Shown here piece after piece: positions 36,945-50,953 of a DNA stretch of 64,000 bases. The first letter of the stretch is position 1; each line of letters begins with the position of its first letter. The notes beneath the pieces are model-generated. The model did no database searches. It saw only the letters and a list, made by a program, of their open reading frames with translations, and was not told where the DNA came from. The translations under genes were made by a program, and so were the position numbers. The stretch lies in contig SUXZ01000010.1 in the NCBI GenBank assembly GCA_015060685.1, positions 6,514 to 70,513 on the forward strand, in the 5' to 3' direction. Source of the DNA: Mediterranea massiliensis. Its GTDB lineage: Bacteria; Bacteroidota; Bacteroidia; Bacteroidales; Bacteroidaceae.

Positions 36945-38123
36945 TTAATAAAGGAATCCGAACAGCCATAGCGGAATGTTGTTTCCTCTTCCCAGCTCCT
37001 GTTTGTGATGAACGTACACCACGTCGGGATTGTTTTTCACCTTCATCCCTTCGGTGCAAATCTTGAACGGTATGCGGCCGTCCACCACGAACGAGGCGTG
37101 CTTGTCGCCCTTGCTCACCTTGTGGTCTTTCCACATGCAGTTCACGAAGAACGTCTCTGCCACCTCCTTCTCCTCCACGCGTAGCGGATAGATGGAGAAC
37201 ATCAGGTTAGGGTTGTGCATCATGATTTTCGAAGGCTTCTTCGGAAACTCTTCGCCCACCGGATACACCATATTTATCAGTCGCGCGTCGGCCAGGTACT
37301 TGATGTAGTTCATCACCGTAGCCCTGGACGTTTCAATCTCGCCCGCCAGTTGGCTCACGTTCGGTGCCTTCGCCCCGTCCACGGCCAGCAGGTAGAGCAG
37401 CTTCTTTATCTTCGACAGATACTTCAGTTCAATCTGTTTAATCAGCAGGATGTCCACCTCTACCATCATGTTCATCGTCTTCAGCAGGTTCTCCGAGAAG
37501 TTTCGTTTCTCCAGGAAGAAGGGGTAGAATCCGTGGTGCATATAGTCCTGCAGATAGTCCATCGGCCTCACCTTGGCCAGTATTCCTTTGGCCAGATGCT
37601 CGTGATTCTTCATAATCTCTTCGAGCGTGTAGGCTCTGAACTTCATGCCCGTCTGCAGGTTCAGGTATTCGCGAAACGAGAAACCTCGGAGGTTGTAGCT
37701 TTTCACCACGTCGTTCAGTTGGGGGTTTTCCTCCTTCAGTCTCATCACGCTCGATCCTGTGAATACAATCTTCAGTTCGGGCAGTTGGTCGTAGCACGCC
37801 CTCAGCTCCTCGCTCCACCGGGGTTGTTTAAACACCTGGTCAATCAGCAGCACCTTTCCTCCGCGGGCATAAAACTGCTTGGCGAAGTCCAGAATGGTGT
37901 GATTGGTAAAGTAGAGGTTGTTCATGTTGATGTAGAGGCACGAGCGGTCGTCGCCGTACTTCTCCTTGGCATATTGAAGCAAGAAGGTGGTCTTTCCCAC
38001 GCCGCGCATTCCCTTGATACCAATCAGCCTGTGATTCCAGTCAATCTCGTCCATAAGGTCGCGACGTACAGGGGCATTGGTATGCTCTACAAGATAGGCG
38101 TGTGTGCGGAAAAATGCTTCCAT
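36945..38123 (-). CDS. AAA_14-type ATP-binding protein (DUF4143-like C-terminus)
   Basis: GMRGVGKT Walker A, LLIDQV Walker B and FTGSS. The start at MEAFF (38123) is preferred. Confidence 0.85.
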   Translation of the reverse strand: MEAFFRTHAYLVEHTNAPVRRDLMDEIDWNHRLIGIKGMRGVGKTTFLLQYAKEKYGDDRSCLYINMNNLYFTNHTILDFAKQFYARGGKVLLIDQVFKQPRWSEELRACYDQLPELKIVFTGSSVMRLKEENPQLNDVVKSYNLRGFSFREYLNLQTGMKFRAYTLEEIMKNHEHLAKGILAKVRPMDYLQDYMHHGFYPFFLEKRNFSENLLKTMNMMVEVDILLIKQIELKYLSKIKKLLYLLAVDGAKAPNVSQLAGEIETSRATVMNYIKYLADARLINMVYPVGEEFPKKPSKIMMHNPNLMFSIYPLRVEEKEVAETFFVNCMWKDHKVSKGDKHASFVVDGRIPFKICTEGMKVKNNPDVVYVHHKQELGRGNNIPLWLFGFLY

Positions 38124-38201
38124 TATAGGGTGTGCTATATAATTTGCGGCAAAGATACGTATTATTTGCGTATTTGCAAAGCCGAGTTTGCAAAAAATCA
38201 C

Positions 38202-38422: not shown

Positions 38423-39589
38423 TTGGCAATACATCTTTTCAACCCCGATACCGACCAGGCCCTGGCGCATCACGGCGCCCACTACCTGCCGTCCAAATCC
38501 ATCATCCAACTGATGGACGACCTTGCCCTGCTGCCCCTCTGGTATGCCCCTGCCGGAAGCGCCCTGCTCGTGCCGCGTGCCACCACCGTCGCCGCGCTGC
38601 CACCCGCCTTGCAGGCGTTCGCCGCTCAGGACATCACCCTGCTCACGTGGGACGAGCTTGCCGCCGCCAACGGCCATTGCATCATCCCCTGGGGTTGGAA
38701 CCTCGCCCTGCGCCACCGCCTGCTGCAAAGCGGTGTAGATGAATCCCTTCTGCCCACCGCCCGGCAGATAGAAACCCTGCGCCAGCTCTCCTCGCGCCAC
38801 ACCATCGCCCCCTTGCTCGATGCCTTTGCCGGCCGCCCTCAGTTCGTGGGGCAGGTGCAGTGCCTCACCACCCTCGAGCAGTGTCGCAGCTATGTAGATG
38901 GCCGTCCGTCGCTCCTCAAACTGCCGTGGAGCAGTAGCGGAAAAGGCCTTAACTGGTGCCGTCACGGCTTCACTCCCCTCATCCAGTCGTGGTGTGCCAA
39001 GGCCCTGCGCACCCAAGGCAGCATTCAGGCTGCCCCCATCTACCACAAAGTGTTCGACTTCGCCATGGAGTTTCACCTCGCCGCCCCCGGTCAGTGTCGC
39101 TTCATCGGCTACTCCCGCTTCATCACCAACGATAGCGGCGCCTACCAGGGCAACCTCCTTGCCTCCGACTCTCGCATCGAGCGCGAAATCCACACCTACC
39201 TTCCTGCCGGCACCCTGTCGCTGACGCGTCAACTGCTCCTTCCCGCGCTCACCGAGCTTTCGCACCGCTACCAGGGTCCTTTAGGCATCGACATGATGGT
39301 TTGTCTCGAAGAGGGCACCTACCGCCTGCACCCCTGTGTGGAGATGAACCTCCGCCTCAACATGGGCATTGTGGCCCACACCATCCACCGTCGCCACCTC
39401 CATCCCGACGCGTGCGGCCATTTCCGCCTCCACCATTTCCCCACGCCTCAGGCACTCCAGGCCGAAGCCGCCCGCCTTGCCGCCCTCCATCCCCTGCAGC
39501 TGGACGAAGGCCGCATCCTCCACGGCTTCATGCCCCTTGTACCCATCACCCCCCAAACCCAAAACCTCGCCTATCTGTTGGTGTTTTAG
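38423..39589 (+). CDS. ATP-grasp-fold protein of unknown substrate
   Basis: LKLPWSSSGKG loop, GPLGIDM and CVEMNLRLNMG (ExNxR); TTG start. Confidence 0.65.
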   Translation: MAIHLFNPDTDQALAHHGAHYLPSKSIIQLMDDLALLPLWYAPAGSALLVPRATTVAALPPALQAFAAQDITLLTWDELAAANGHCIIPWGWNLALRHRLLQSGVDESLLPTARQIETLRQLSSRHTIAPLLDAFAGRPQFVGQVQCLTTLEQCRSYVDGRPSLLKLPWSSSGKGLNWCRHGFTPLIQSWCAKALRTQGSIQAAPIYHKVFDFAMEFHLAAPGQCRFIGYSRFITNDSGAYQGNLLASDSRIEREIHTYLPAGTLSLTRQLLLPALTELSHRYQGPLGIDMMVCLEEGTYRLHPCVEMNLRLNMGIVAHTIHRRHLHPDACGHFRLHHFPTPQALQAEAARLAALHPLQLDEGRILHGFMPLVPITPQTQNLAYLLVF

Positions 39590-39745: not shown

Positions 39746-39950
39746 CGTTGCAAAGATACAACCCGCCAACCCCTTTTGCAACTATTTTCGCCCCTCATTT
39801 TTTTATTAACATTTGCCCTGCTCCAAATGTTAAAAGAATCCTTTCTGCCTGCCGAACGCACACCGCGCGCGCACGGAATTTTTTCCGTAAGTCTGCGCTA
39901 TGCTTTCGGTGGATGGGTGGTTTCCTTGTCGTCTTCCGAGCACAAAAAGT

Positions 39951-40144
39951 TCACAGTTATCTCAGTTCACAGTTTATTTTTCGCGCTATGCACCTCCAAT
40001 AAGCAGCGAAAAACTACTTGTAAAGATATTTCATTATATATATAATATATTATATATATTATTATATAATCATTCGGGTTCATCTTTTCTTCGGGATTGA
40101 AAGGGGGTATGCAAAAAAATAACTGTGAACTGAGATAACTGTGA
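39951..40144. repeat. 24-bp perfect inverted repeat flanking an AT-rich core
   Basis: TCACAGTTATCTCAGTTCACAGTT (39951-39974) is the reverse complement of 40121-40144. Confidence 0.9.
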
Positions 40145-40329
40145 CATTTTACCCCGAAAGTGTACGATATTGCCAAGTCTTTGTACGATTCTGCATGGTC
40201 TGTTTGCGAAATAAAGTGGTATATTGTCGCGCACGCGAGGAAATAAACAAGGCGAATAAAAATTTACGGAAATCTGCTTGCGGTTCAAAATATTATCCCT
40301 ATATTTGCAAGCACAACAATTTATTAACC

Positions 40330-40419
40330 ATGGAAATAGCAAAGGTATTAACACAAATTAACAAAATGGGGGGGGGTAAAAAATCCTACCTCATCGGCGT
40401 ATTGCGTTGCTATTCATAA
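40330..40419 (+). other. Small ORF (29 aa) with a G9 tract
   Basis: MEIAKVLTQINKMGGGKKSYLIGVLRCYS, with G9 at 40368-40376, downstream of a TATATTTG promoter box. Confidence 0.4.
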
Positions 40420-40584
40420 CCCCATAATCCCCCTTACAAGCATTTTTCTGGGCGACTTGTTGCATCTATCCCCGATGCAGCAGGCCGCTCTTTTTTTGTC
40501 GGATTTGCAAAAACGATGGGACACCATAAACCGGAACATTTTTAATAGATAAACCAATATAAACAACTAAAAAATGAATGAAAA

Positions 40585-40710
40585 ATGAAAGAAACAGTAT
40601 TTCAAGACTACGAAGCTCCACAGGTGGAGATAGTAGAAGTAGAGGTGGAACGAGGATTTGAGGCATCGGCCAAATGGTTCGGTCCTGAAGACGACTGGGA
40701 TAATCCGTAA
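40585..40710 (+). CDS. 41-aa acidic peptide, copy 1
   Basis: MKETVFQDYEAPQVEIVEVEVERGFEASAKWFGPEDDWDNP. An A-rich Bacteroidetes-type translation start and a duplicated paralogue support coding status. Confidence 0.8.
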   Translation: MKETVFQDYEAPQVEIVEVEVERGFEASAKWFGPEDDWDNP

Positions 40711-40737
40711 GTCTAACAACTAAAACAAGAACGAAAA

Positions 40738-41673
40738 ATGAAAAAGATATTTTTTGCATTGGCAGCCCTTGTGCTTGCCTTTACCGGATGCAGCCAGGAA
40801 GAGGATGCCATCCAAGTGAGCGAAAAGAAAGCCGTCAAGGTAGTGGTAAATATGGATAAGCCGGGCTTTGGCACTGATACTCGCGCCGCTCGTACCGGTT
40901 GGGAAGAGGGCGATGAAGTGGTAGTAACACTGGCTGGTCAACTTACTGCCTATGTAAAGCTGACCTATCAAAATGATAAAACATGGGAAACTGCTTTTTA
41001 TAGATATGATGAAGATGAAGAAGGGTATATAGAACTAACAGAAGAGCAGTCAGCATCTTTTATTGCAGAAATAGAAACAGCACTACCTTCTGGCTCAGTA
41101 AAAGCAGCCTATTTCTCTTCGGGTGTTTTGGGAGTTAATTATAATGAAACATATGTACACATTATAACGAAAGCCTTAACGCAAAATAAGGGCGAATGTA
41201 TCATGACTTGCGAGGATGGTGAATATAGCGTGAGTGGAGGCGCATTAACTTTGAACATCACCATGATTCCCCAAGTAGCCCAATTCACTATCAAGGATTT
41301 AAATGTAGAGGATGATTATATTGTGTGTTATGAGGGAACAATAACAGCCTATGCCAGTGGAATAATTAATGCCGATGGTGTTGAATTGAATCCCGTGGGA
41401 GCGCTCGGTGGAAATCATGGTGCTTGGGTTCATGATAATAAAGATGGCATTTCAATCTATGCCAGTCCGTGGGAAGAAGTACCGGATGGATTTCAAGAGG
41501 CAGTTATATCGAAAGGCGGTTTAGGCTTTTTTTGCTTTTTTCTTTATGATACTGCTGATAATGGATATTACCGTGATTTTCATGGAAAGAGTACCTTGAA
41601 AAATGGCGGTGCTGTGATTTTTGATGGTCCTACTACACCTGGTGCTGTAAGTTGGATTACCCCCATCCCCTAA
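40738..41673 (+). CDS. Fimbrillin-like (type V pilin-like) surface lipoprotein, copy 1
   Basis: LAFTGC lipobox with SQEED export signal; DTRAARTGWEEGDEV (TR..W..GD motif typical of Bacteroidales fimbrillins). Confidence 0.7.
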   Translation: MKKIFFALAALVLAFTGCSQEEDAIQVSEKKAVKVVVNMDKPGFGTDTRAARTGWEEGDEVVVTLAGQLTAYVKLTYQNDKTWETAFYRYDEDEEGYIELTEEQSASFIAEIETALPSGSVKAAYFSSGVLGVNYNETYVHIITKALTQNKGECIMTCEDGEYSVSGGALTLNITMIPQVAQFTIKDLNVEDDYIVCYEGTITAYASGIINADGVELNPVGALGGNHGAWVHDNKDGISIYASPWEEVPDGFQEAVISKGGLGFFCFFLYDTADNGYYRDFHGKSTLKNGGAVIFDGPTTPGAVSWITPIP

Positions 41674-41684
41674 AATAATCTCTT

Positions 41685-41716
41685 AAAGGTTGCACTTCGG
41701 TGCAGCCTTTTTTTTT
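41685..41716 (+). terminator. Intrinsic terminator of cassette 1
   Basis: AAAGGTTGCA-CTTCGG-TGCAGCCTTT plus a T tract. Confidence 0.85.
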
Positions 41717-42074
41717 GTTTCCTTCGGACGGTTGATGCTGCTCCACCCCGCTCCTGATAGGCTGTGAGAGGGGGTGCTTAAATAGTTGAAACATCGGTTA
41801 AAAACTTTCTGTATTTTTTCTTGCAAGAATGAAAATGGCATACTAATTTTGCGTGCAATCGACAGTACACCGAGAGGTGTGCTAATATTAATCTCTTAAA
41901 ACCTATATAATAAATGAAAACATATTCATTTACTGCATCTCAAGTAGTGGGTAGTTGAGGACAATACGCAATAGATGTAGCGTCTGCAAAGACGCGAATT
42001 TGCAAACGATGGGACACCATAAACCGAACATTTTTAATAGATAAACTAATATAAACAACTAAAAAACAAAGAAA

Positions 42075-42200
42075 ATGAAAGAAACAGTATTTCAAGACTA
42101 CGAAGCTCCACAGGTGGAGATAGTAGAAGTAGAGGTAGAACGAGGATTTGAGGCATCGGCCAAATGGTTCGGTCCTGAAAAAAATTGGGATGATGAATAA
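42075..42200 (+). CDS. 41-aa acidic peptide, copy 2
   Basis: MKETVFQDYEAPQVEIVEVEVERGFEASAKWFGPEKNWDDE. Confidence 0.8.
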   Translation: MKETVFQDYEAPQVEIVEVEVERGFEASAKWFGPEKNWDDE

Positions 42201-42234: not shown

Positions 42235-43224
42235 ATGAAAAAGATATTTTTTGCATTGGCAGCCCTTGTGCTTGCCTTTACCGGATGCAGCCAGGAAGAG
42301 GATGCCATCCAAGTGAGCGAAAAGAAGGCCATCAAGGTAGTGGTAAATATGGATAAGCCGGGCTTTGGCGAAGATACTCGCCAAGCTCGTACCGGTTGGG
42401 AAGAGGGAGATGAAGTGGATGTTATGTTGGGCGGCGATTTAGGGCATCTGATAGCGCTAAAGTATGATGGAACCAGTTGGAAGGAAGTGGTGTTGTCTTT
42501 TGATGCTGCTGATGGGGAATGGGAAGAGGTCGATGAGGAAGAAGCAAATGATTATTTGGCCAATTTACCCAGCAGCGGTGACTTGAAAGCCATTTATTGC
42601 TCTTCAGGTATTAGTTATTTTGCACCAATCCCATTGGCTGCTATACCTGCTGCTCAACTTACCGGTATAAATATTTATTCTAATGCTCGTGATAATGAGG
42701 ATTACGACTATTACTTAGAAAAGGATATTCCTAATCCTTTAGGCGAATGTATCATGACTTGCGAGGATGGTACTTATAGTGCAAGCGGTGGCGTATTAAC
42801 TTTGACCATCACCATGATTCCCCAAGTAGCCCAATTCACTATCAAGGATTTAAATGTAGAGGATGATTATACAGTGGAGTATGCGGGAACAATGACAGCC
42901 TATGCTGGTGGTACTATTACACCTACCGGTGTTGAATTGAATCCCGTGGGAGAACCCTTTGATCCATATGGTGCTTGGGTTCATGATAATGAAGATGGCA
43001 TTTCAATCTATGCCAGTCCGTGGCAAGTAGCACCGGATGGAGTTAATCAGTCAAAGCTTGATAAAGTAGGTTTAGGCTATTTTTTGTTTATTTTTTATGA
43101 TGCTGATGATAATGAATATTACCGTGAATTTCCAGGAAAGACTGACTTGAAAAATGGTGATGCCGTGATTTTTGATGGTCCTACTACCGTTGGCGCTGAA
43201 GATAAATGGGTTGAACCAGTATAA
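42235..43224 (+). CDS. Fimbrillin-like surface lipoprotein, copy 2
   Basis: 58 of the first 61 residues are identical to copy 1; DTRQARTGWEEGDEV. Confidence 0.7.
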   Translation: MKKIFFALAALVLAFTGCSQEEDAIQVSEKKAIKVVVNMDKPGFGEDTRQARTGWEEGDEVDVMLGGDLGHLIALKYDGTSWKEVVLSFDAADGEWEEVDEEEANDYLANLPSSGDLKAIYCSSGISYFAPIPLAAIPAAQLTGINIYSNARDNEDYDYYLEKDIPNPLGECIMTCEDGTYSASGGVLTLTITMIPQVAQFTIKDLNVEDDYTVEYAGTMTAYAGGTITPTGVELNPVGEPFDPYGAWVHDNEDGISIYASPWQVAPDGVNQSKLDKVGLGYFLFIFYDADDNEYYREFPGKTDLKNGDAVIFDGPTTVGAEDKWVEPV

Positions 43225-43249: not shown

Positions 43250-43279
43250 AAAGGTTGCACTTCGGTGCAGCCTTTTTTT
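43250..43279 (+). terminator. Intrinsic terminator of cassette 2
   Basis: Same hairpin sequence as the cassette 1 terminator. Confidence 0.85.
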
Positions 43280-43598: not shown

Positions 43599-43857
43599 AC
43601 TTGTTCCTCCTATAGTTAAAGGTTTCTAAGTTTATGCAACTCGCTGATAATGTTGGCGAAGATAAAGGCGAAGAAGGCGATGATGAGGGTGGCGCCGAGG
43701 ATGTTGATTGCACGCTTGAAGGGGCGATGGGGAGGTATGGTTTCAAGTGATTAGCGACTAGCTACTAGTGATTAGTGAAATCAAAAATCATAACTCAAAA
43801 AGGCCATTCTATATTTCCATTATTCATTTTTTTTAGCCATATTTGCACCATAAATTT

Positions 43858-44859
43858 ATGAGTAACAAAGTGAGCTATATACCGCCTTTTTCTGTGAGTG
43901 CCGAAGCTATCAATCTGATTGCGCAAATATCGGCTCAAATTGAACGCTATGCCATCCGTTTAGAGCAGAGCGATGGGCTTCGTTTGCGTAAAGCTAATCG
44001 CATAAAAACCATTCATAGTTCGCTAGCTATAGAGGGTAACAAACTGACGGAAGGGCAAGTGAGCGATATTATTAACGGAAAAAATGTAGTGGCACCGCTG
44101 CGCGATATTCAAGAGGTGAAGAATGCTATTGCTACCTACGACTTGTACGATAGCTTGGATGCCTTTAGCGTGGATGATTTGCTAAAAGCTCATGGCGTGA
44201 TGATGCAAGCGCTGACCAATGAGGCGGGGCGCTTCAGACGTGGCGGCGTAGGGGTGTTTGGCGAAACGGGATGTGTGCATATTGCACCTCCGGCCGATAG
44301 GGTGCCTTACTTGATAAAAGACCTTTTTGGATGGTTGCGCAATTCGACCGACCACTTGCTTATCCGTTCGTGCGTATTTCATTACGAATTTGAGTTCATA
44401 CATCCGTTTATTGATGGAAACGGACGCATGGGGCGTTTGTGGCAATCGCTTATCTTGGGCAAGTTGCATCCGCTTTTTCAGTTTTTGCCAGTAGAGAACA
44501 TGGTGCATGCCAATCAACAGGCTTATTATGATGCCATTGGTGAGAGTAGCCGAATAGGTAATAGTGCCCCTTTCATTGATTTTATGCTTCGTGAGATTTT
44601 GCACACATTGAAACAACACCAAGGTGATGTATTGGATGTCGGAACAAATGTCGGAACAAATGTCGGTATAAACATTGGAGAAAACGAGCGAAAGTTACTA
44701 TCTATTATTGCTCATTCACCCCAAGCAACTGCTCGCGAAATGGCTGATATATTGGGTGTTACTTCACGTCAGTGTGAGCGTGTTTTGGCAACGATGAAGC
44801 AAAAGGGATTGATTGCTCGTATTGGTGCAAACAAAGGCGGGTATTGGAAAATATTGTAA
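43858..44859 (+). CDS. Fic family protein with a C-terminal HTH
   Basis: HPFIDGNGRMGR, SLAIEGN inhibitory motif, VGTN linker repeats and a winged-HTH tail. Confidence 0.9.
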   Translation: MSNKVSYIPPFSVSAEAINLIAQISAQIERYAIRLEQSDGLRLRKANRIKTIHSSLAIEGNKLTEGQVSDIINGKNVVAPLRDIQEVKNAIATYDLYDSLDAFSVDDLLKAHGVMMQALTNEAGRFRRGGVGVFGETGCVHIAPPADRVPYLIKDLFGWLRNSTDHLLIRSCVFHYEFEFIHPFIDGNGRMGRLWQSLILGKLHPLFQFLPVENMVHANQQAYYDAIGESSRIGNSAPFIDFMLREILHTLKQHQGDVLDVGTNVGTNVGINIGENERKLLSIIAHSPQATAREMADILGVTSRQCERVLATMKQKGLIARIGANKGGYWKIL

Positions 44860-44872
44860 ACGACAGAAAGCT

Positions 44873-46087
44873 ATGTATATACTTATTTTATTGTTTTTAG
44901 TATCGCTTTGCGCTTGTGGCGGTGGCCAGGGTGGGGCGGATGAGCAAGGGAACGACTCGATTGTGGCCGAGGTGCCGATGAAGTATGGCTTGCCGATTGA
45001 GGAGTTTGCCGTGACCTACGACACGATACGCACGGGCGAGACGCTGGCCGAGGTGCTGATGGGATTCGGCATGTCGCCGGCACAGGTGTACGAACTGACG
45101 CAATGCCCCGACTCGGTGTTCGACGTGCGACGCATGCGCCCGGGACAGGCGTGTGCCTACCTGTGCAACAAGGACAGTGCCGCCACACCGCGATATTTTG
45201 TCTATGAGGAGAGCCGCAAGGCGTATGTGCGCTTCGACCTGACGGACAACTACAGACCTACACGTGCCGAGAAACCGAGCGAATGGCGCGAAGGCGAGGT
45301 GGCGGGCGAGGTGAACTCGTCGCTTTGGGTGGCCATGCAGGAGGCGGAGGCCTCGCCCATGCTGGCGGTGATGTTGTCGCACATCTTCGGGTGGAGCATC
45401 GACTTCTTCGGCATCCAGAAGGGGGATGAGTTCCGACTGATTTATGCGCAGGAGTTTGTGGAGGAGGAGCCGCTGAATAATTATAAGGTGTTGGCGGCAT
45501 CGTTCAAGGCGAATGATAGCTTGGTGTATGCCATACCGTTTGTGCAAGACGACGAGGAACTTTTCTACAATGTAAACGGCAACAGCTTGGAGGGGGCTTT
45601 CCTGAAGGCACCGCTCGACTTCTACCGCATTTCGTCGCGATTTACCAACAGCCGATTCCATCCGGTGCTGAAGCGATACAGGGCGCATCACGGCGTGGAT
45701 TATGCCGCGCCTACGGGCACGCCTGTCTATGCCATCGGTAGCGGAAAAGTGATAGACAAAGGGTATCAGGCTGGTGGAGGCGGCAACTATGTGAAGATTC
45801 GCCACAACAGCACCTACACCACAACGTACATGCACTTGTCGAAGTTTGCCAAGGGGCTGAAGGTGGGCGACCAAGTGGCGCAGAAGGAGGTGATTGGCTA
45901 TGTAGGCTCGACGGGGCTTTCTACAGGGCCGCACCTGGACTTCCGCGTGTACGAGAATGGCAAGCCTGTGAATCCGCTCACTATCAAATCGCAACCGAAG
46001 AAACCCATCAGTGAGGCGAATCGCGATTCGTTTGCCGTGGTGGCCGACTCGCTGGTGAAGCGACTAACCAATATCTTAAAAAAATAA
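44873..46087 (+). CDS. M23 peptidoglycan DD-endopeptidase lipoprotein
   Basis: Lipobox LCAC, HHGVDY (HxxxD) and TGPHL (HxH). Confidence 0.9.
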   Translation: MYILILLFLVSLCACGGGQGGADEQGNDSIVAEVPMKYGLPIEEFAVTYDTIRTGETLAEVLMGFGMSPAQVYELTQCPDSVFDVRRMRPGQACAYLCNKDSAATPRYFVYEESRKAYVRFDLTDNYRPTRAEKPSEWREGEVAGEVNSSLWVAMQEAEASPMLAVMLSHIFGWSIDFFGIQKGDEFRLIYAQEFVEEEPLNNYKVLAASFKANDSLVYAIPFVQDDEELFYNVNGNSLEGAFLKAPLDFYRISSRFTNSRFHPVLKRYRAHHGVDYAAPTGTPVYAIGSGKVIDKGYQAGGGGNYVKIRHNSTYTTTYMHLSKFAKGLKVGDQVAQKEVIGYVGSTGLSTGPHLDFRVYENGKPVNPLTIKSQPKKPISEANRDSFAVVADSLVKRLTNILKK

Positions 46088-49312: not shown

Positions 49313-50953
49313 ATGAAAAAAGATTTCTTTTGTTTGCTATTGTGCATAATGGCATGTTTGTTTACTGCTTGTGGTGGCGATGACCCCATTGATACTCCAA
49401 TAGATAAACCGGAAACGGAAGAACCCGAAACACCGGTTGTGCCGGAAGAACCCGATGGTCCCGATGAACCGGTGTGGGACGACCAAGGATGGATTACCGC
49501 TACCGAAGCCATTGAAAAGATGGGATTGGGTTGGAATCTTGGCAACACACTCGATGCTTGCGACTTTACAAAGAATTTCGGCGCGGCCGACTGGAGAGCA
49601 TGGGAAACATGCTGGGGACAACCCGTTACATCACCCGAATTGATGCAGATGATAAAGGATGCTGGATTTGGTGCCATGCGCATACCCGTAACCTGGAAAG
49701 GACACTTGGACGCCAACGGAAAGGTGGATGCAACCTGGATGAATCGCGTGAAAGAGGTGGTGGGCTATGTGCTGGATGCAGGCATGTATTGCATCGTGAA
49801 TGTGCATCACGACACCGGTGCCGATGAAAGCGCATGGCTCGTGGCAAGCATGAATAAGTATAACGAAAACAAGGCACTGTACGAAGGCCTCTGGAAGCAG
49901 ATTGCCGAAACCTTTAAGGAGTATGACGAGCGATTGATGTTCGAATCGTACAACGAAATGCTGGACGAACGACGCTCGTGGTGCTTCTCAACCTTTGCCG
50001 GAGGATACGATGCCGCCGAAGCTGCCGATGCCTACAAGGCCATCAATAGCTATGCACAAAGCTTTGTGGATGTGGTACGCGCCACCGGAGGCAATAACGT
50101 AGGACGCAACCTGATAGTAAACACTTACGGCGCTTGCAACGGTGCCGGCACATGGAATCCTCACTTGATTGATCCGCTTGTAGAGATGCAATTACCCGAA
50201 GATGTGGTTGAGAATCACCTCTTGTTCGAAGTGCATACCTATCCGAATATCGACAACTTGAACAGCGCCAAGCAGGAAGTGGCTGGTATGATAACCAATC
50301 TGAAGAAACATCTGGTGGAGAAGGGTGCGCCCGTCATCATCGGCGAGTGGGGAAACAGTAGCGACAATCCGTCGTTGGAGAATAGATTGGCATTCATTAC
50401 CGACTTTGTGAAGCAGGTAAAGGCTGCTGGCATGGGTATGTATTATTGGATGGGATTGAGCGATGCTACCGCCCGACAACTGCCGGCATTCAGTGAGCCG
50501 GAGTGTGCATTGGCTATGTTGAAAGCATATCATGGCGATGCTTACTCGCCCGAATTGCCTACGTTGAACACGGTAGATTTTGCTTATGACGTGACTTACA
50601 ACCAACAATGGGCGGAGGCGAAAGTGTGCAAGGAAAACATCAATCTGAACGATTATAAAGGCATTCGAGTTGAACTTGCCGAAGCACCGAAAAATGGTGT
50701 GCTGAGCATAAAGTGCTATGGCGAAGGTGAGGGTGTGAGCTACAACGTAGCGGTGACCGATGCCGTAACCGAACTGGAGTTTGATGCCGCTAAATTGGGT
50801 GGAAAGGCAACGCGCGTGACGTTGCAATGCATGACTACCCCTACGGTGAAGACAACCATCAAACGTGCCGTATTGATTAGACACGACGGTACAGAAGAGG
50901 TGCAGACGCCCTCTTCTTTCTGGGGATGTGAAGTGATACTTAATCAAACATAA
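49313..50953 (+). CDS. GH5 endoglucanase/xyloglucanase-like lipoprotein
   Basis: Lipobox FTAC, GWNLGNTLD, RIPVTW, FESYNE acid/base and IIGEWG nucleophile. Confidence 0.9.
   Translation: MKKDFFCLLLCIMACLFTACGGDDPIDTPIDKPETEEPETPVVPEEPDGPDEPVWDDQGWITATEAIEKMGLGWNLGNTLDACDFTKNFGAADWRAWETCWGQPVTSPELMQMIKDAGFGAMRIPVTWKGHLDANGKVDATWMNRVKEVVGYVLDAGMYCIVNVHHDTGADESAWLVASMNKYNENKALYEGLWKQIAETFKEYDERLMFESYNEMLDERRSWCFSTFAGGYDAAEAADAYKAINSYAQSFVDVVRATGGNNVGRNLIVNTYGACNGAGTWNPHLIDPLVEMQLPEDVVENHLLFEVHTYPNIDNLNSAKQEVAGMITNLKKHLVEKGAPVIIGEWGNSSDNPSLENRLAFITDFVKQVKAAGMGMYYWMGLSDATARQLPAFSEPECALAMLKAYHGDAYSPELPTLNTVDFAYDVTYNQQWAEAKVCKENINLNDYKGIRVELAEAPKNGVLSIKCYGEGEGVSYNVAVTDAVTELEFDAAKLGGKATRVTLQCMTTPTVKTTIKRAVLIRHDGTEEVQTPSSFWGCEVILNQT

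Follow-up and report, generated by a model that had tools for sequence, protein, structure and literature searches.

A 64,000-nucleotide stretch of DNA from Mediterranea massiliensis (contig SUXZ01000010.1; hereafter the window) contains two 41-codon open reading frames (ORFs), peptide genes A and B, each of which is followed by a gene for a lipoprotein. Both ORFs are genuine genes of a very large peptide family of gut Bacteroidales. With a probability that we put at about 0.68, they encode the precursors of a Bacteroidales variant of the linear polyphosphorylated peptides (LPPs), coupled to pilin-like lipoproteins and served in trans by modification enzymes. An earlier note on this DNA had located both ORFs and had proposed them to be precursors of ribosomally made peptides that are modified after translation (RiPPs) with a YxxP leader. 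That proposal gains support from purifying selection on the leader-like segment in homologues, from the presence of genes for a RiPP recognition element (RRE), a kinase and an S26-type peptidase at no fewer than 10 types of homologous loci, and from the probable match to LPP systems. The note made no mention of the lipoprotein gene after each peptide gene, and it is this constant partner that sets the system apart from RiPPs known so far.

A Large Peptide Family with Selection on the Protein

Peptides A and B are identical in residues 1–35 and differ in the final six. The shared part had been described as invariant and leader-like. The identity is real, but it is no evidence of selection, because both ORFs lie inside a recent tandem duplication in which the DNA is near-identical from about 95 nt 5' of the ATG to around codon 60 of the lipoprotein gene (alignment A1); the 105 nt coding for the 35 common residues contain a single synonymous difference. 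The informative part of the comparison is the last six codons, where 8 base changes fall within 18 nt and a 7-nt indel follows just after the stop codon, while the flanking DNA is identical. No copies of the peptide other than these two were detected in the window by tblastn or by a family profile hidden Markov model (HMM) run on the six-frame translation.

Outside the window, a word-indexed search returned 31 small proteins of 35–51 aa with a common head and differing tails, and a profile search of 1.84 billion cluster representatives expanded the family to at least 947 clusters (counted at 50% identity; E ≤ 0.001), nearly all of 33–50 aa. The architecture of constant head and variable tail, which the earlier note had read from two sequences, is therefore real at the level of the family (947 clusters; 212 distinct sequences). 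In the 212 sequences the head comprises 20 almost invariant residues with the consensus Y-E-A-P-Q-V-E-[IV]-[IV]-E-V-E-V-E-[KQR]-G-F-A-x-S, which the window peptides enter with Y9-E-A-P-Q-V14. The Pro and Gly are found in all 212 sequences, the Tyr in 211, the Phe in 210 and the Val of YxxPxV in 207; the final Ser is present in 205, with Thr in 6 more, and is preceded by a small residue (A, T, V or G) and by no conserved Thr. In most sequences 1–10 variable residues precede the head. Tail length runs from 6 to 30 aa, with a median of 14. The tails are acidic (mean charge −2.6) and abound in G, D, P, N and E, Trp also being frequent; an aromatic residue occurs among the last five positions in 71%, and a Cys occurs in one tail of the 212. 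The family peptides have no signal peptide.

Most importantly, the head is under purifying selection at the protein level. Across 42 distinct DNA versions, synonymous variation occurs at all 20 head codons, and the codon for the invariant Ser, which was left unconstrained in the degenerate DNA pattern used for retrieval, is AGY (AGT or AGC) in 17 versions and TCN in 23. Variation of this kind throughout the head, together with the use of both Ser codon families, means that selection acts on the protein. Loci L015 and L017, which were reached via the lipoprotein rather than the peptide, likewise retain the head in spite of many synonymous changes. The earlier note had made its proposal depend on purifying selection on the YxxP–VEIV segment in homologues, and such selection is present.

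The codon data also bear on the possibility that the conserved stretch is not translated and is instead a DNA or RNA element, such as a regulator in a 5' untranslated region (UTR) or a recombination site, or that it is a regulatory upstream ORF with an unimportant product. No terminator separates the stretch from the lipoprotein gene, in whose transcript it takes a 5' position, it is DNA-identical within the window, and the adjacent 5' end of the lipoprotein gene is oddly invariant at the DNA level. An element of this type would nevertheless not be expected to keep the same head in 42 DNA versions with AGY/TCN exchange at Ser, or to preserve start codon, frame and stop in hundreds of clusters within lengths of 33–50 aa; gene callers already predict the ORF, which NCBI lists as a hypothetical protein in some genomes, and no Rfam family reaches threshold. 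The codon analysis and the absence of an Rfam match led us to reject an RNA element, and we regard the entire class of explanations as very improbable.

The family is very abundant. With the degenerate head pattern, 61 loci came up in metagenomes, human gut being the origin of many; the window peptides recur unchanged on at least 24 contigs of different samples. Members also occur in Bacteroides uniformis, among them MEKKNFIENYEAPQVEIVEVEVEKGFATSFGGEDGQWS, and one peptide of that species was seen on more than 1000 contigs. A scan of genome contigs with the peptide alignment confirmed at least one locus. A scan of viral contigs gave no match, and the family is thus not a phage feature. Pfam and NCBIfam scans of the peptides matched no family model, a Protein Data Bank (PDB) sequence search with the peptide profile yielded nothing useful, and literature searches with the motif strings found no paper in the library searched. 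The B. uniformis-type peptide (L024 and others) aligns below threshold (E 0.0056) with positions 1–37 of the 123-position Pfam family DUF7021, and longer proteins sharing the head may exist.

A Pilin-Like Lipoprotein Accompanies the Peptide

A lipoprotein gene follows the peptide gene in 56 of 57 evaluable metagenome loci, and in every one of the loci reached by other routes. The intergenic gap is 4–70 nt (158 nt in one fragmentary assembly, L050), with 27–34 nt in the two window cassettes, and the partner ORFs of the metagenome loci span 274–1065 aa. The sole evaluable exception, L025 (reverse strand, peptide at about 6394), has a terminator hairpin after the peptide gene and no lipoprotein gene within 600 nt.

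Lipoproteins A and B of the window are 58% identical by BLASTP and 62% in a MAFFT alignment. Their family numbers no fewer than 197 proteins from metagenome-assembled genomes (MAGs) of Bacteroidaceae/Bacteroides, every one of which carries a hypothetical annotation; a 329-aa member of the 90%-identity cluster of lipoprotein B is annotated in a Mediterranea massiliensis MAG. The AlphaFold (AF2) model of lipoprotein A is all-beta (predicted local distance difference test, pLDDT, 84.6). Foldseek places five Bacteroides structures of fimbrial or adhesin proteins first (E 2e-5 to 6e-5) and Mfa2 seventh; the matches include BACOVA_02677 and, at probability 1.00, BF1858, BT0320, BACOVA_04982 and Mfa2, with low TM-scores of 0.29–0.38. 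At the sequence level there is a weak NCBIfam match to the Mfa1 N-terminal domain, and curated models (Pfam, NCBIfam) are not reached. Based on the model, the window lipoprotein is predicted to adopt the type V pilin (FimA/Mfa) fold, with which the lipobox, the acidic residues after the Cys, the N-terminal strand and the DTR↓A site are all in keeping. Larger partner lipoproteins add leucine-rich repeat (LRR)/BspA or other C-terminal domains, and the B. uniformis partner is annotated as a "cell surface protein". The pairing of such peptides with pilin-like lipoproteins has not been described before.

Two further observations concern the lipoprotein genes. The paralogues at 40738–41673 and 42235–43224 are mosaic, with near-identical blocks (for example 41190–41320 versus 42745–42875) alternating with diverged or indel-rich ones, as expected of recombination between surface-protein alleles. 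Their first ~135 nt, which encode the signal peptide and prosegment (40738–40872 and 42235–42369), are almost invariant at the DNA level in eight loci (alignment A3, comprising both window copies and L002, L005, L014, L015, L017 and L001). This invariance extends to L015 and L017 although the adjacent upstream peptide genes differ there at many synonymous sites, and it points to gene conversion, to an anchor for recombination or to constraint on the nucleotides themselves.

The Peptide Tail Matches the Class of the Lipoprotein

When the lipoproteins were clustered, four classes with more than one member emerged, and a separate peptide tail motif goes with each. The class of the window lipoproteins is paired with tails of the form ...FGPE(D/K)(D/N)W..., a class of 274–290-aa lipoproteins with ...I-D-D-M-P-Y..., a class of 283–311-aa lipoproteins with ...YP...P.E.P[LW], and a class of large cell-surface proteins with ...G-E-D-G-x-W.... 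The N-terminal prefix follows lineage instead, MKETVFQD being found in three classes and MKTNE[FI]L in two. Since the tails are class-specific motifs that match the lipoprotein across lineage prefixes, they are not neutral junk. In view of this match, the mature peptide most likely works alongside its cognate lipoprotein, which it may bind, cap or decorate, but the match may also have arisen simply because old gene pairs were inherited together.

The correspondence holds at the level of classes only. The lipoprotein of L014 is 45% identical to lipoprotein A, and that of L002 closely resembles A over its sequenced 5' part; co-variation of tail and lipoprotein on a finer scale within a class was rejected, as the tails of L002 and L014 are near-identical despite divergent lipoproteins. 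Bacterial single-stranded DNA-binding protein ends in an acidic C-terminal tip, D-D-D-I-P-F, which the I-D-D-M-P-Y tail motif (L028, L067, L073, L077 and L086) resembles; this may be coincidence.

An RRE–Kinase–Peptidase Operon Adjoins Homologous Cassettes

Locus L015 is syntenic with the left side of the window, sharing PFOR, the AAA_14 ATPase and a 390-aa protein. Its peptide–lipoprotein pair is followed by five genes, which encode a PqqD-family protein of 89 aa, an NTP_transf_5 protein, an MsbA/PglK-like ABC exporter, a P-loop protein and a small S26-like peptidase. This operon sits exactly where the window has its second cassette and a Fic gene. Searched by tblastn with the five L015 proteins, 24 of the 61 metagenome loci, representing seven peptide/lipoprotein types, have the operon directly downstream of the pair, and overall the combination occurs at 10 distinct locus types. 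Sampling from the side of the kinase gave peptide and lipoprotein genes upstream in two of three loci (L079 and L083). The nucleoside triphosphate (NTP) transferase and the exporter occur in most homologous clusters but are missing at L079 and partly so at L081 and L083.

The identity of these proteins is supported to different degrees. The PqqD protein (Pfam E 5.7e-10) and the NTP transferase (PF14907, E 5.4e-40) match their families directly, the exporter has PglK and MsbA as best matches, and NCBI names in B. uniformis include "PqqD family peptide modification chaperone" and "S26 family signal peptidase". The P-loop protein (GESGTGKST) has an AF2 model with pLDDT 90.5 that Foldseek matches to PEPCK and HprK/P with probability 1.00, and it is predicted to be an HprK/PEPCK-fold kinase; its family comprises at least 8000 clusters at 90% identity. 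The S26-like peptidase, of 145–182 aa, carries the motifs G-x-S-M-F-P and H-R-I at a Ser–His spacing of 39 residues, lacks an N-terminal membrane segment, and matches Pfam S24 (E 0.008) and TIGR02227/02228 (E 5e-4). Relative to the L015 proteins, PqqD proteins of other loci are 59–66% and kinases 57–58% identical. The former have invariant L-N and D-A-x-x-W motifs, and their profile weakly matched the lasso RRE TfuB1 in a PDB sequence search (E 0.06); PDB sequence searches with the kinase and S26 peptidase profiles gave nothing useful.

Several features of the surrounding loci are of separate interest. L081 (1–6781 and 7092–10294) has an operon of machinery only (PqqD, ABC, kinase and S26) without an adjacent precursor, next to a capsular polysaccharide locus. 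The complete peptide–lipoprotein–operon loci L046 (881–2086 and 10513–12978) and L079 (5209–6558) are flanked by Bacteroides-type tyrosine recombinases with Arm-DNA-bind_5, Phage_int_SAM_5 and Phage_integrase domains, which hints at mobility or recombinase-controlled expression. Several loci grouped as orphan, L002 (5191–9539), L005 (3164–7483), L015 (4015–7732) and L088 (2–2615), have three genes ahead of the cassette that the window lacks. They encode an AraC/TPR regulator, a large protein (437 aa, or about 830 aa and weakly matching MACPF) and an ORF of 78–112 aa whose sequence overlaps the peptide start codon.

A Model for Peptide Maturation

The same set of proteins has been studied in LPP biosynthesis in Bacillota (Popov et al., Nat Commun 2026, PMC13381572), where the precursor LppA is served by the RRE LppB, the HprK-like kinase LppK, the archaeal-type signal peptidase I LppS, the NTP transferase LppN and the MsbA-like exporter LppD. 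LPP precursors are 35–200 aa long, with the conserved N-terminus YxxPxVLxHQxIxFETxxS and variable C-termini. LppB binds YxxP, and LppS (catalytic residues S29/H68/D93) cleaves after T-1, with F-3, E-2 and T-1 all of importance, provided that the substrate is presented by LppB and not otherwise; Ser3 of the core is the residue that LppK polyphosphorylates (PMC13381572).

By analogy, a simple model would have the head dock on the PqqD-type RRE, to which its YEAPQV segment would add one more beta-strand. The HprK/PEPCK-fold kinase would phosphorylate the invariant Ser, and the RRE would hold out the junction to a soluble enzyme of the Ser/His type that resembles signal peptidases. This S26-like enzyme would most likely cut at F(-3)-[A/E](-2)-x(-1)↓S(+1), releasing SAKWFGPEDDWDNP and SAKWFGPEKNWDDE with a phospho-Ser from the two window precursors. 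The nucleotidyltransferase could extend the phosphate, and the MsbA-like ABC pump would export the product. The mature peptide would then most likely act with the adjacent lipoprotein, by binding, capping or decorating it, which is the least supported step of the model. It is possible, though tentative, that the phosphorylated core binds or is attached to the cognate type V pilin-fold lipoprotein, for example to cap it by filling the groove, to switch its assembly or to add charge to the surface, so that the two form one functional unit. If so, the RiPP would be a dedicated adhesin subunit or cofactor rather than a diffusible antibiotic or signal, and the hundreds of tail and lipoprotein classes in a gut community could represent a major unrecognized determinant of Bacteroidales surface diversity.

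Points against the Model and Competing Explanations

A number of observations weigh against the LPP-like interpretation of the window genes. No homologues of the PqqD/RRE, the kinase or the S26 peptidase were found in the 64-kb window by tblastn or profile HMM. The components that characterize LPP clusters (a discrete RRE, an S26-type peptidase, a kinase and an NTP transferase or exporter) are thus lacking at the window locus, although the family as a whole has the RRE. All loci seen with the MKETVFQD prefix are orphans without machinery, and because of these two findings the window copies could be unprocessed. The Bacteroidales head has an acidic VEVEVE strand, with 16 residues from Y to F versus 13 in LppA, and its Ser lies three residues after the F versus five in LppA; since these spacings differ, the cut site and the phospho-site are uncertain extrapolations. 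LPP clusters offer no precedent for a lipoprotein gene between precursor and RRE, which means that the lipoprotein itself could be what the operon serves. The homology of the Bacteroidales enzymes to LppB, LppK, LppS, LppN and LppD appears from shared Pfam families, fold and motifs rather than from direct alignment. In favor of expression, gut metatranscriptome contigs span the conserved peptide-coding part and the lipoprotein 5' end and then continue into other family tails, which is weak evidence that family members are transcribed; contigs assembled from mixed communities can contain DNA.

The earlier note had described PqqD/RRE, radical SAM and peptidase genes as absent from the vicinity, which is correct for the RRE, the kinase and the S26 peptidase over all 64 kb; an unrelated M23 peptidase gene does lie nearby. 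The profile search for further copies that it had advised returned, within the window, only the two peptide genes and no RRE. By tblastn there is also no NTP transferase or MsbA-like exporter in the window, where an ABC gene at 50940–52754 matches only the generic ATPase domain. As the window encodes none of these enzymes, its cassettes are orphan precursor–lipoprotein pairs, and they are presumably processed in trans by an operon elsewhere in the genome. For RiPPs it is usual that a single operon serves several scattered precursor genes.

Alternatively, the window peptide genes could be relics that lost their operon and are now unprocessed or not made, being carried along on the lipoprotein transcript. 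The lack of machinery in 64 kb, the orphan state of every MKETVFQD locus seen and the placement of the second cassette and Fic gene at the position of the L015 operon would all fit decay of this kind. Relics would not, however, be expected to remain intact with all family-invariant residues and the class motif FGPE(D/K)(D/N)W, or to be found as identical peptides on at least 24 contigs from different samples. Continued selection is moreover indicated by MKETVFQD peptides, which are spread over three lipoprotein classes and bear the tail proper to each. A single operon for several scattered precursors is usual among RiPPs, and L081 has machinery without an adjacent precursor. Loss of function is accordingly judged quite unlikely.

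A different possibility is that the peptide is an accessory factor for the lipoprotein. Its VEVEVE strand, whose alternating hydrophobic and acidic residues suit an edge strand, would fill the pilin groove in the manner of a donor strand or cap, or the peptide would escort the lipoprotein, and the operon would be a dedicated maturation or export device for the pair. This explanation accounts well for the nearly universal adjacency of the lipoprotein gene as compared with that of the machinery, for the correspondence of tail and lipoprotein classes, and for a predicted type V pilin fold with a cleavable N-terminal strand. Its main difficulty is the head, which is invariant although lipoprotein length varies between 274 and 1065 aa and the C-terminal domains are unrelated; the partner of the head should therefore be a conserved protein, and the PqqD proteins (59–66% identical to that of L015) and kinases (57–58%) are conserved. 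In addition, experiments provide a direct precedent for YxxPxV with a PqqD RRE, and for F..S with an S26 peptidase, as signals in a leader (PMC13381572), and the peptide has no signal peptide. An accessory role without leader function seems unlikely, and we favor the LPP-like precursor interpretation.

Layout of the Window Cassettes

The features of the two cassettes and their neighbors are listed in Table 1. The hairpin upstream of cassette A closes the preceding unit, so cassette A is the start of a new transcript. The conserved region 5' of cassette A is near-identical to that of cassette B (alignment A1). Each peptide–lipoprotein pair looks like a single transcription unit, because hairpins flank the pairs and the terminator scan found none between peptide and lipoprotein genes in either cassette.

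Two sequences to the left of cassette A were noted in passing. A 29-codon ORF at 40331–40420, 3' of a motif resembling TAnnTTTG, is located directly ahead of the terminator upstream of the cassette; it contains a run of nine G at 40368–40376, with one G fewer on one metatranscriptome contig, and the tract may vary in length. At about 39950–40146 there is a palindromic low-complexity tract of A and T only (tatatatataatatattatatatat...), which gives spurious sub-threshold matches to plant miRNAs in Rfam.

Table 1. Positions of the peptide–lipoprotein cassettes and neighboring features in the window.
Feature	Position	Strand	Description	Basis
AAA_14 ATPase gene	36945-38201		Neighbor	
388-aa protein gene	38423-39589		Without Pfam match; 38% identity to the protein kept beside the syntenic locus L015	
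Terminator-like hairpin and T-run	40456-40484	+	End of upstream unit	Terminator scan, sequence
Conserved 5' region, cassette A	40512-40584	+	A-rich leader before ATG; putative promoter/5' UTR	Alignment A1
Peptide gene A	40585-40710	+	41 aa, MKETVFQDYEAPQVEIVEVEVERGFEASAKWFGPEDDWDNP	ORF list
Peptide A, predicted leader	40585-40665		Residues 1-27	Family motif statistics, codon analysis, LppA analogy
Peptide A, YxxPxV motif	40609-40626	+		
Peptide A, predicted core	40666-40707		SAKWFGPEDDWDNP; begins at family-invariant Ser	Motif statistics, codon analysis, analogy to LppA F(-3)E(-2)T(-1)↓..S
Lipoprotein gene A	40738-41673	+	311 aa; lipobox LAFTG↓C; acidic residues after Cys; prosegment strand, then DTR↓A	
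Terminator hairpin after lipoprotein A	41685-41710	+	Identical repeat after lipoprotein B	Alignment A1, terminator scan
Conserved 5' region, cassette B	42003-42074	+		Alignment A1
Peptide gene B	42075-42200	+	41 aa, MKETVFQDYEAPQVEIVEVEVERGFEASAKWFGPEKNWDDE	ORF list
Peptide B, predicted leader	42075-42155	+		Family motif statistics, codon analysis
Peptide B, predicted core	42156-42197	+	SAKWFGPEKNWDDE	Family motif statistics, codon analysis
Lipoprotein gene B	42235-43224	+	329 aa; paralogue of A; lipobox LAFTG↓C	ORF list, alignments
Terminator hairpin after lipoprotein B	43250-43275	+		Terminator scan
Fic/winged-helix protein gene	43843-44859		Neighbor	
M23 peptidase gene (Csd3-like)	44813-46087		Neighbor; unrelated to RiPP machinery	

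Comparison with Known Systems

The window lipoproteins resemble type V pilins and fimbrillin-like lipoproteins (FimA/Mfa; BF1858, BT0320, BACOVA_04982 and Mfa2) in their lipoprotein nature, in the N-terminal strand followed by Arg (DTR↓A) and in the predicted fold, and differ from them in having no pilus operon partners nearby. Such proteins are marked by a lipoprotein signal, an N-terminal strand that ends in Arg or Lys and a pair of transthyretin-like beta-sandwich domains. We know of no small upstream peptide gene reported for classical fim or mfa loci.

Cassettes of TIGR04352 ("HprK-related kinase A") and PF27840 ("ScmC"), which are delimited by their genome context, likewise have a P-loop HprK-like protein beside a PqqD-family protein. 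Matches of the Bacteroidales kinase to TIGR04352 are weak (E 0.006–0.02) and precomputed ScmC matches are "faint", all far below the curated cut-offs. The partner genes of TIGR04352/ScmC cassettes encode radical SAM/SPASM enzymes, which are absent at the Bacteroidales loci. A GG-leader bacteriocin, a lanthipeptide and a radical-SAM precursor were rejected as candidates, as there is no GG motif, Cys is found in one of 212 tails, and no genes for such enzymes lie nearby.

A PqqD RRE, an HprK-like kinase and a nucleotidyltransferase are already known together from the phosphorylated and glycosylated lasso peptides of Firmicutes (PMC8498205, PMC7533575). Paeninodin- and pseudomycoidin-type lasso peptides share with the Bacteroidales system a discrete PqqD-type RRE, an HprK-like kinase, a nucleotidyltransferase, an ABC exporter and a [Y/W]xxP leader. 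In contrast, the Asn-synthetase-like cyclase and B2 cysteine protease of lasso systems were found neither in the window nor in any complete homologous cluster examined, the leader peptidase is of the S26 type, and the Bacteroidales peptides have no conserved C-terminal Ser. A lasso peptide was rejected because cyclase and B2 protease are missing. Lasso precursors also carry a Thr at leader position −2 and an acidic ring-closing residue at core position 7–9, and in the Bacteroidales peptides no conserved Thr precedes the Ser. A paper on RiPP mining in Bacteroidales (PMC10352776) and an RRE survey (PMC12710340) do not mention the system.

The closest counterparts are the LPPs, which were found in about 80 genomes of Bacilli and described as "restricted to the Bacillota", with an unknown role, in a paper that mentions neither Bacteroidota nor lipoproteins (PMC13381572). 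In contrast to the LPPs, the present family is one of Bacteroidales, its cores have 6–30 aa versus 45 aa in the LppA studied, and no lasso cluster is co-located. A gene for a lipoprotein with a predicted type V pilin fold is always inserted between precursor and RRE, orphan precursor–lipoprotein cassettes are numerous, and the NTP transferase or exporter is missing from some clusters (L079, L081 and L083).

The likenesses are nonetheless extensive. The same core set of five proteins adjoins the Bacteroidales homologues. Both families have short precursors with a conserved N-terminus and a variable C-terminus, in which YxxPxV is followed by a Phe and, at a differing distance, by a conserved Ser, and the putative F-E-A↓S junction of the window peptides resembles F-E-T↓ of LppA. 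The Bacteroidales peptidase is predicted to be soluble and of the Ser/His type, with the Ser–His spacing of LppS (S29/H68, 39 residues). The RRE keeps an invariant Asn and Asp at seemingly comparable positions, and its L-N and D-A-x-x-W motifs may, by position alone, correspond to LppB N33 and D70, which hold the P and Y of YxxP. The machinery of L081 abuts a capsule locus, as LPP clusters in Bacilli do (PMC13381572). More generally, LPP enzyme logic would thus extend beyond its stated phylum to a very large family in Bacteroidales, including Bacteroides uniformis. Thousands of easily missed ORFs of less than 50 aa become recognizable genes, and orphan cassettes would explain why many of them lie far from any enzyme. 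The lipoprotein partnership and the class match give LPP-type peptides a testable context at the cell surface, among adhesins, which the work in Bacillota lacked.

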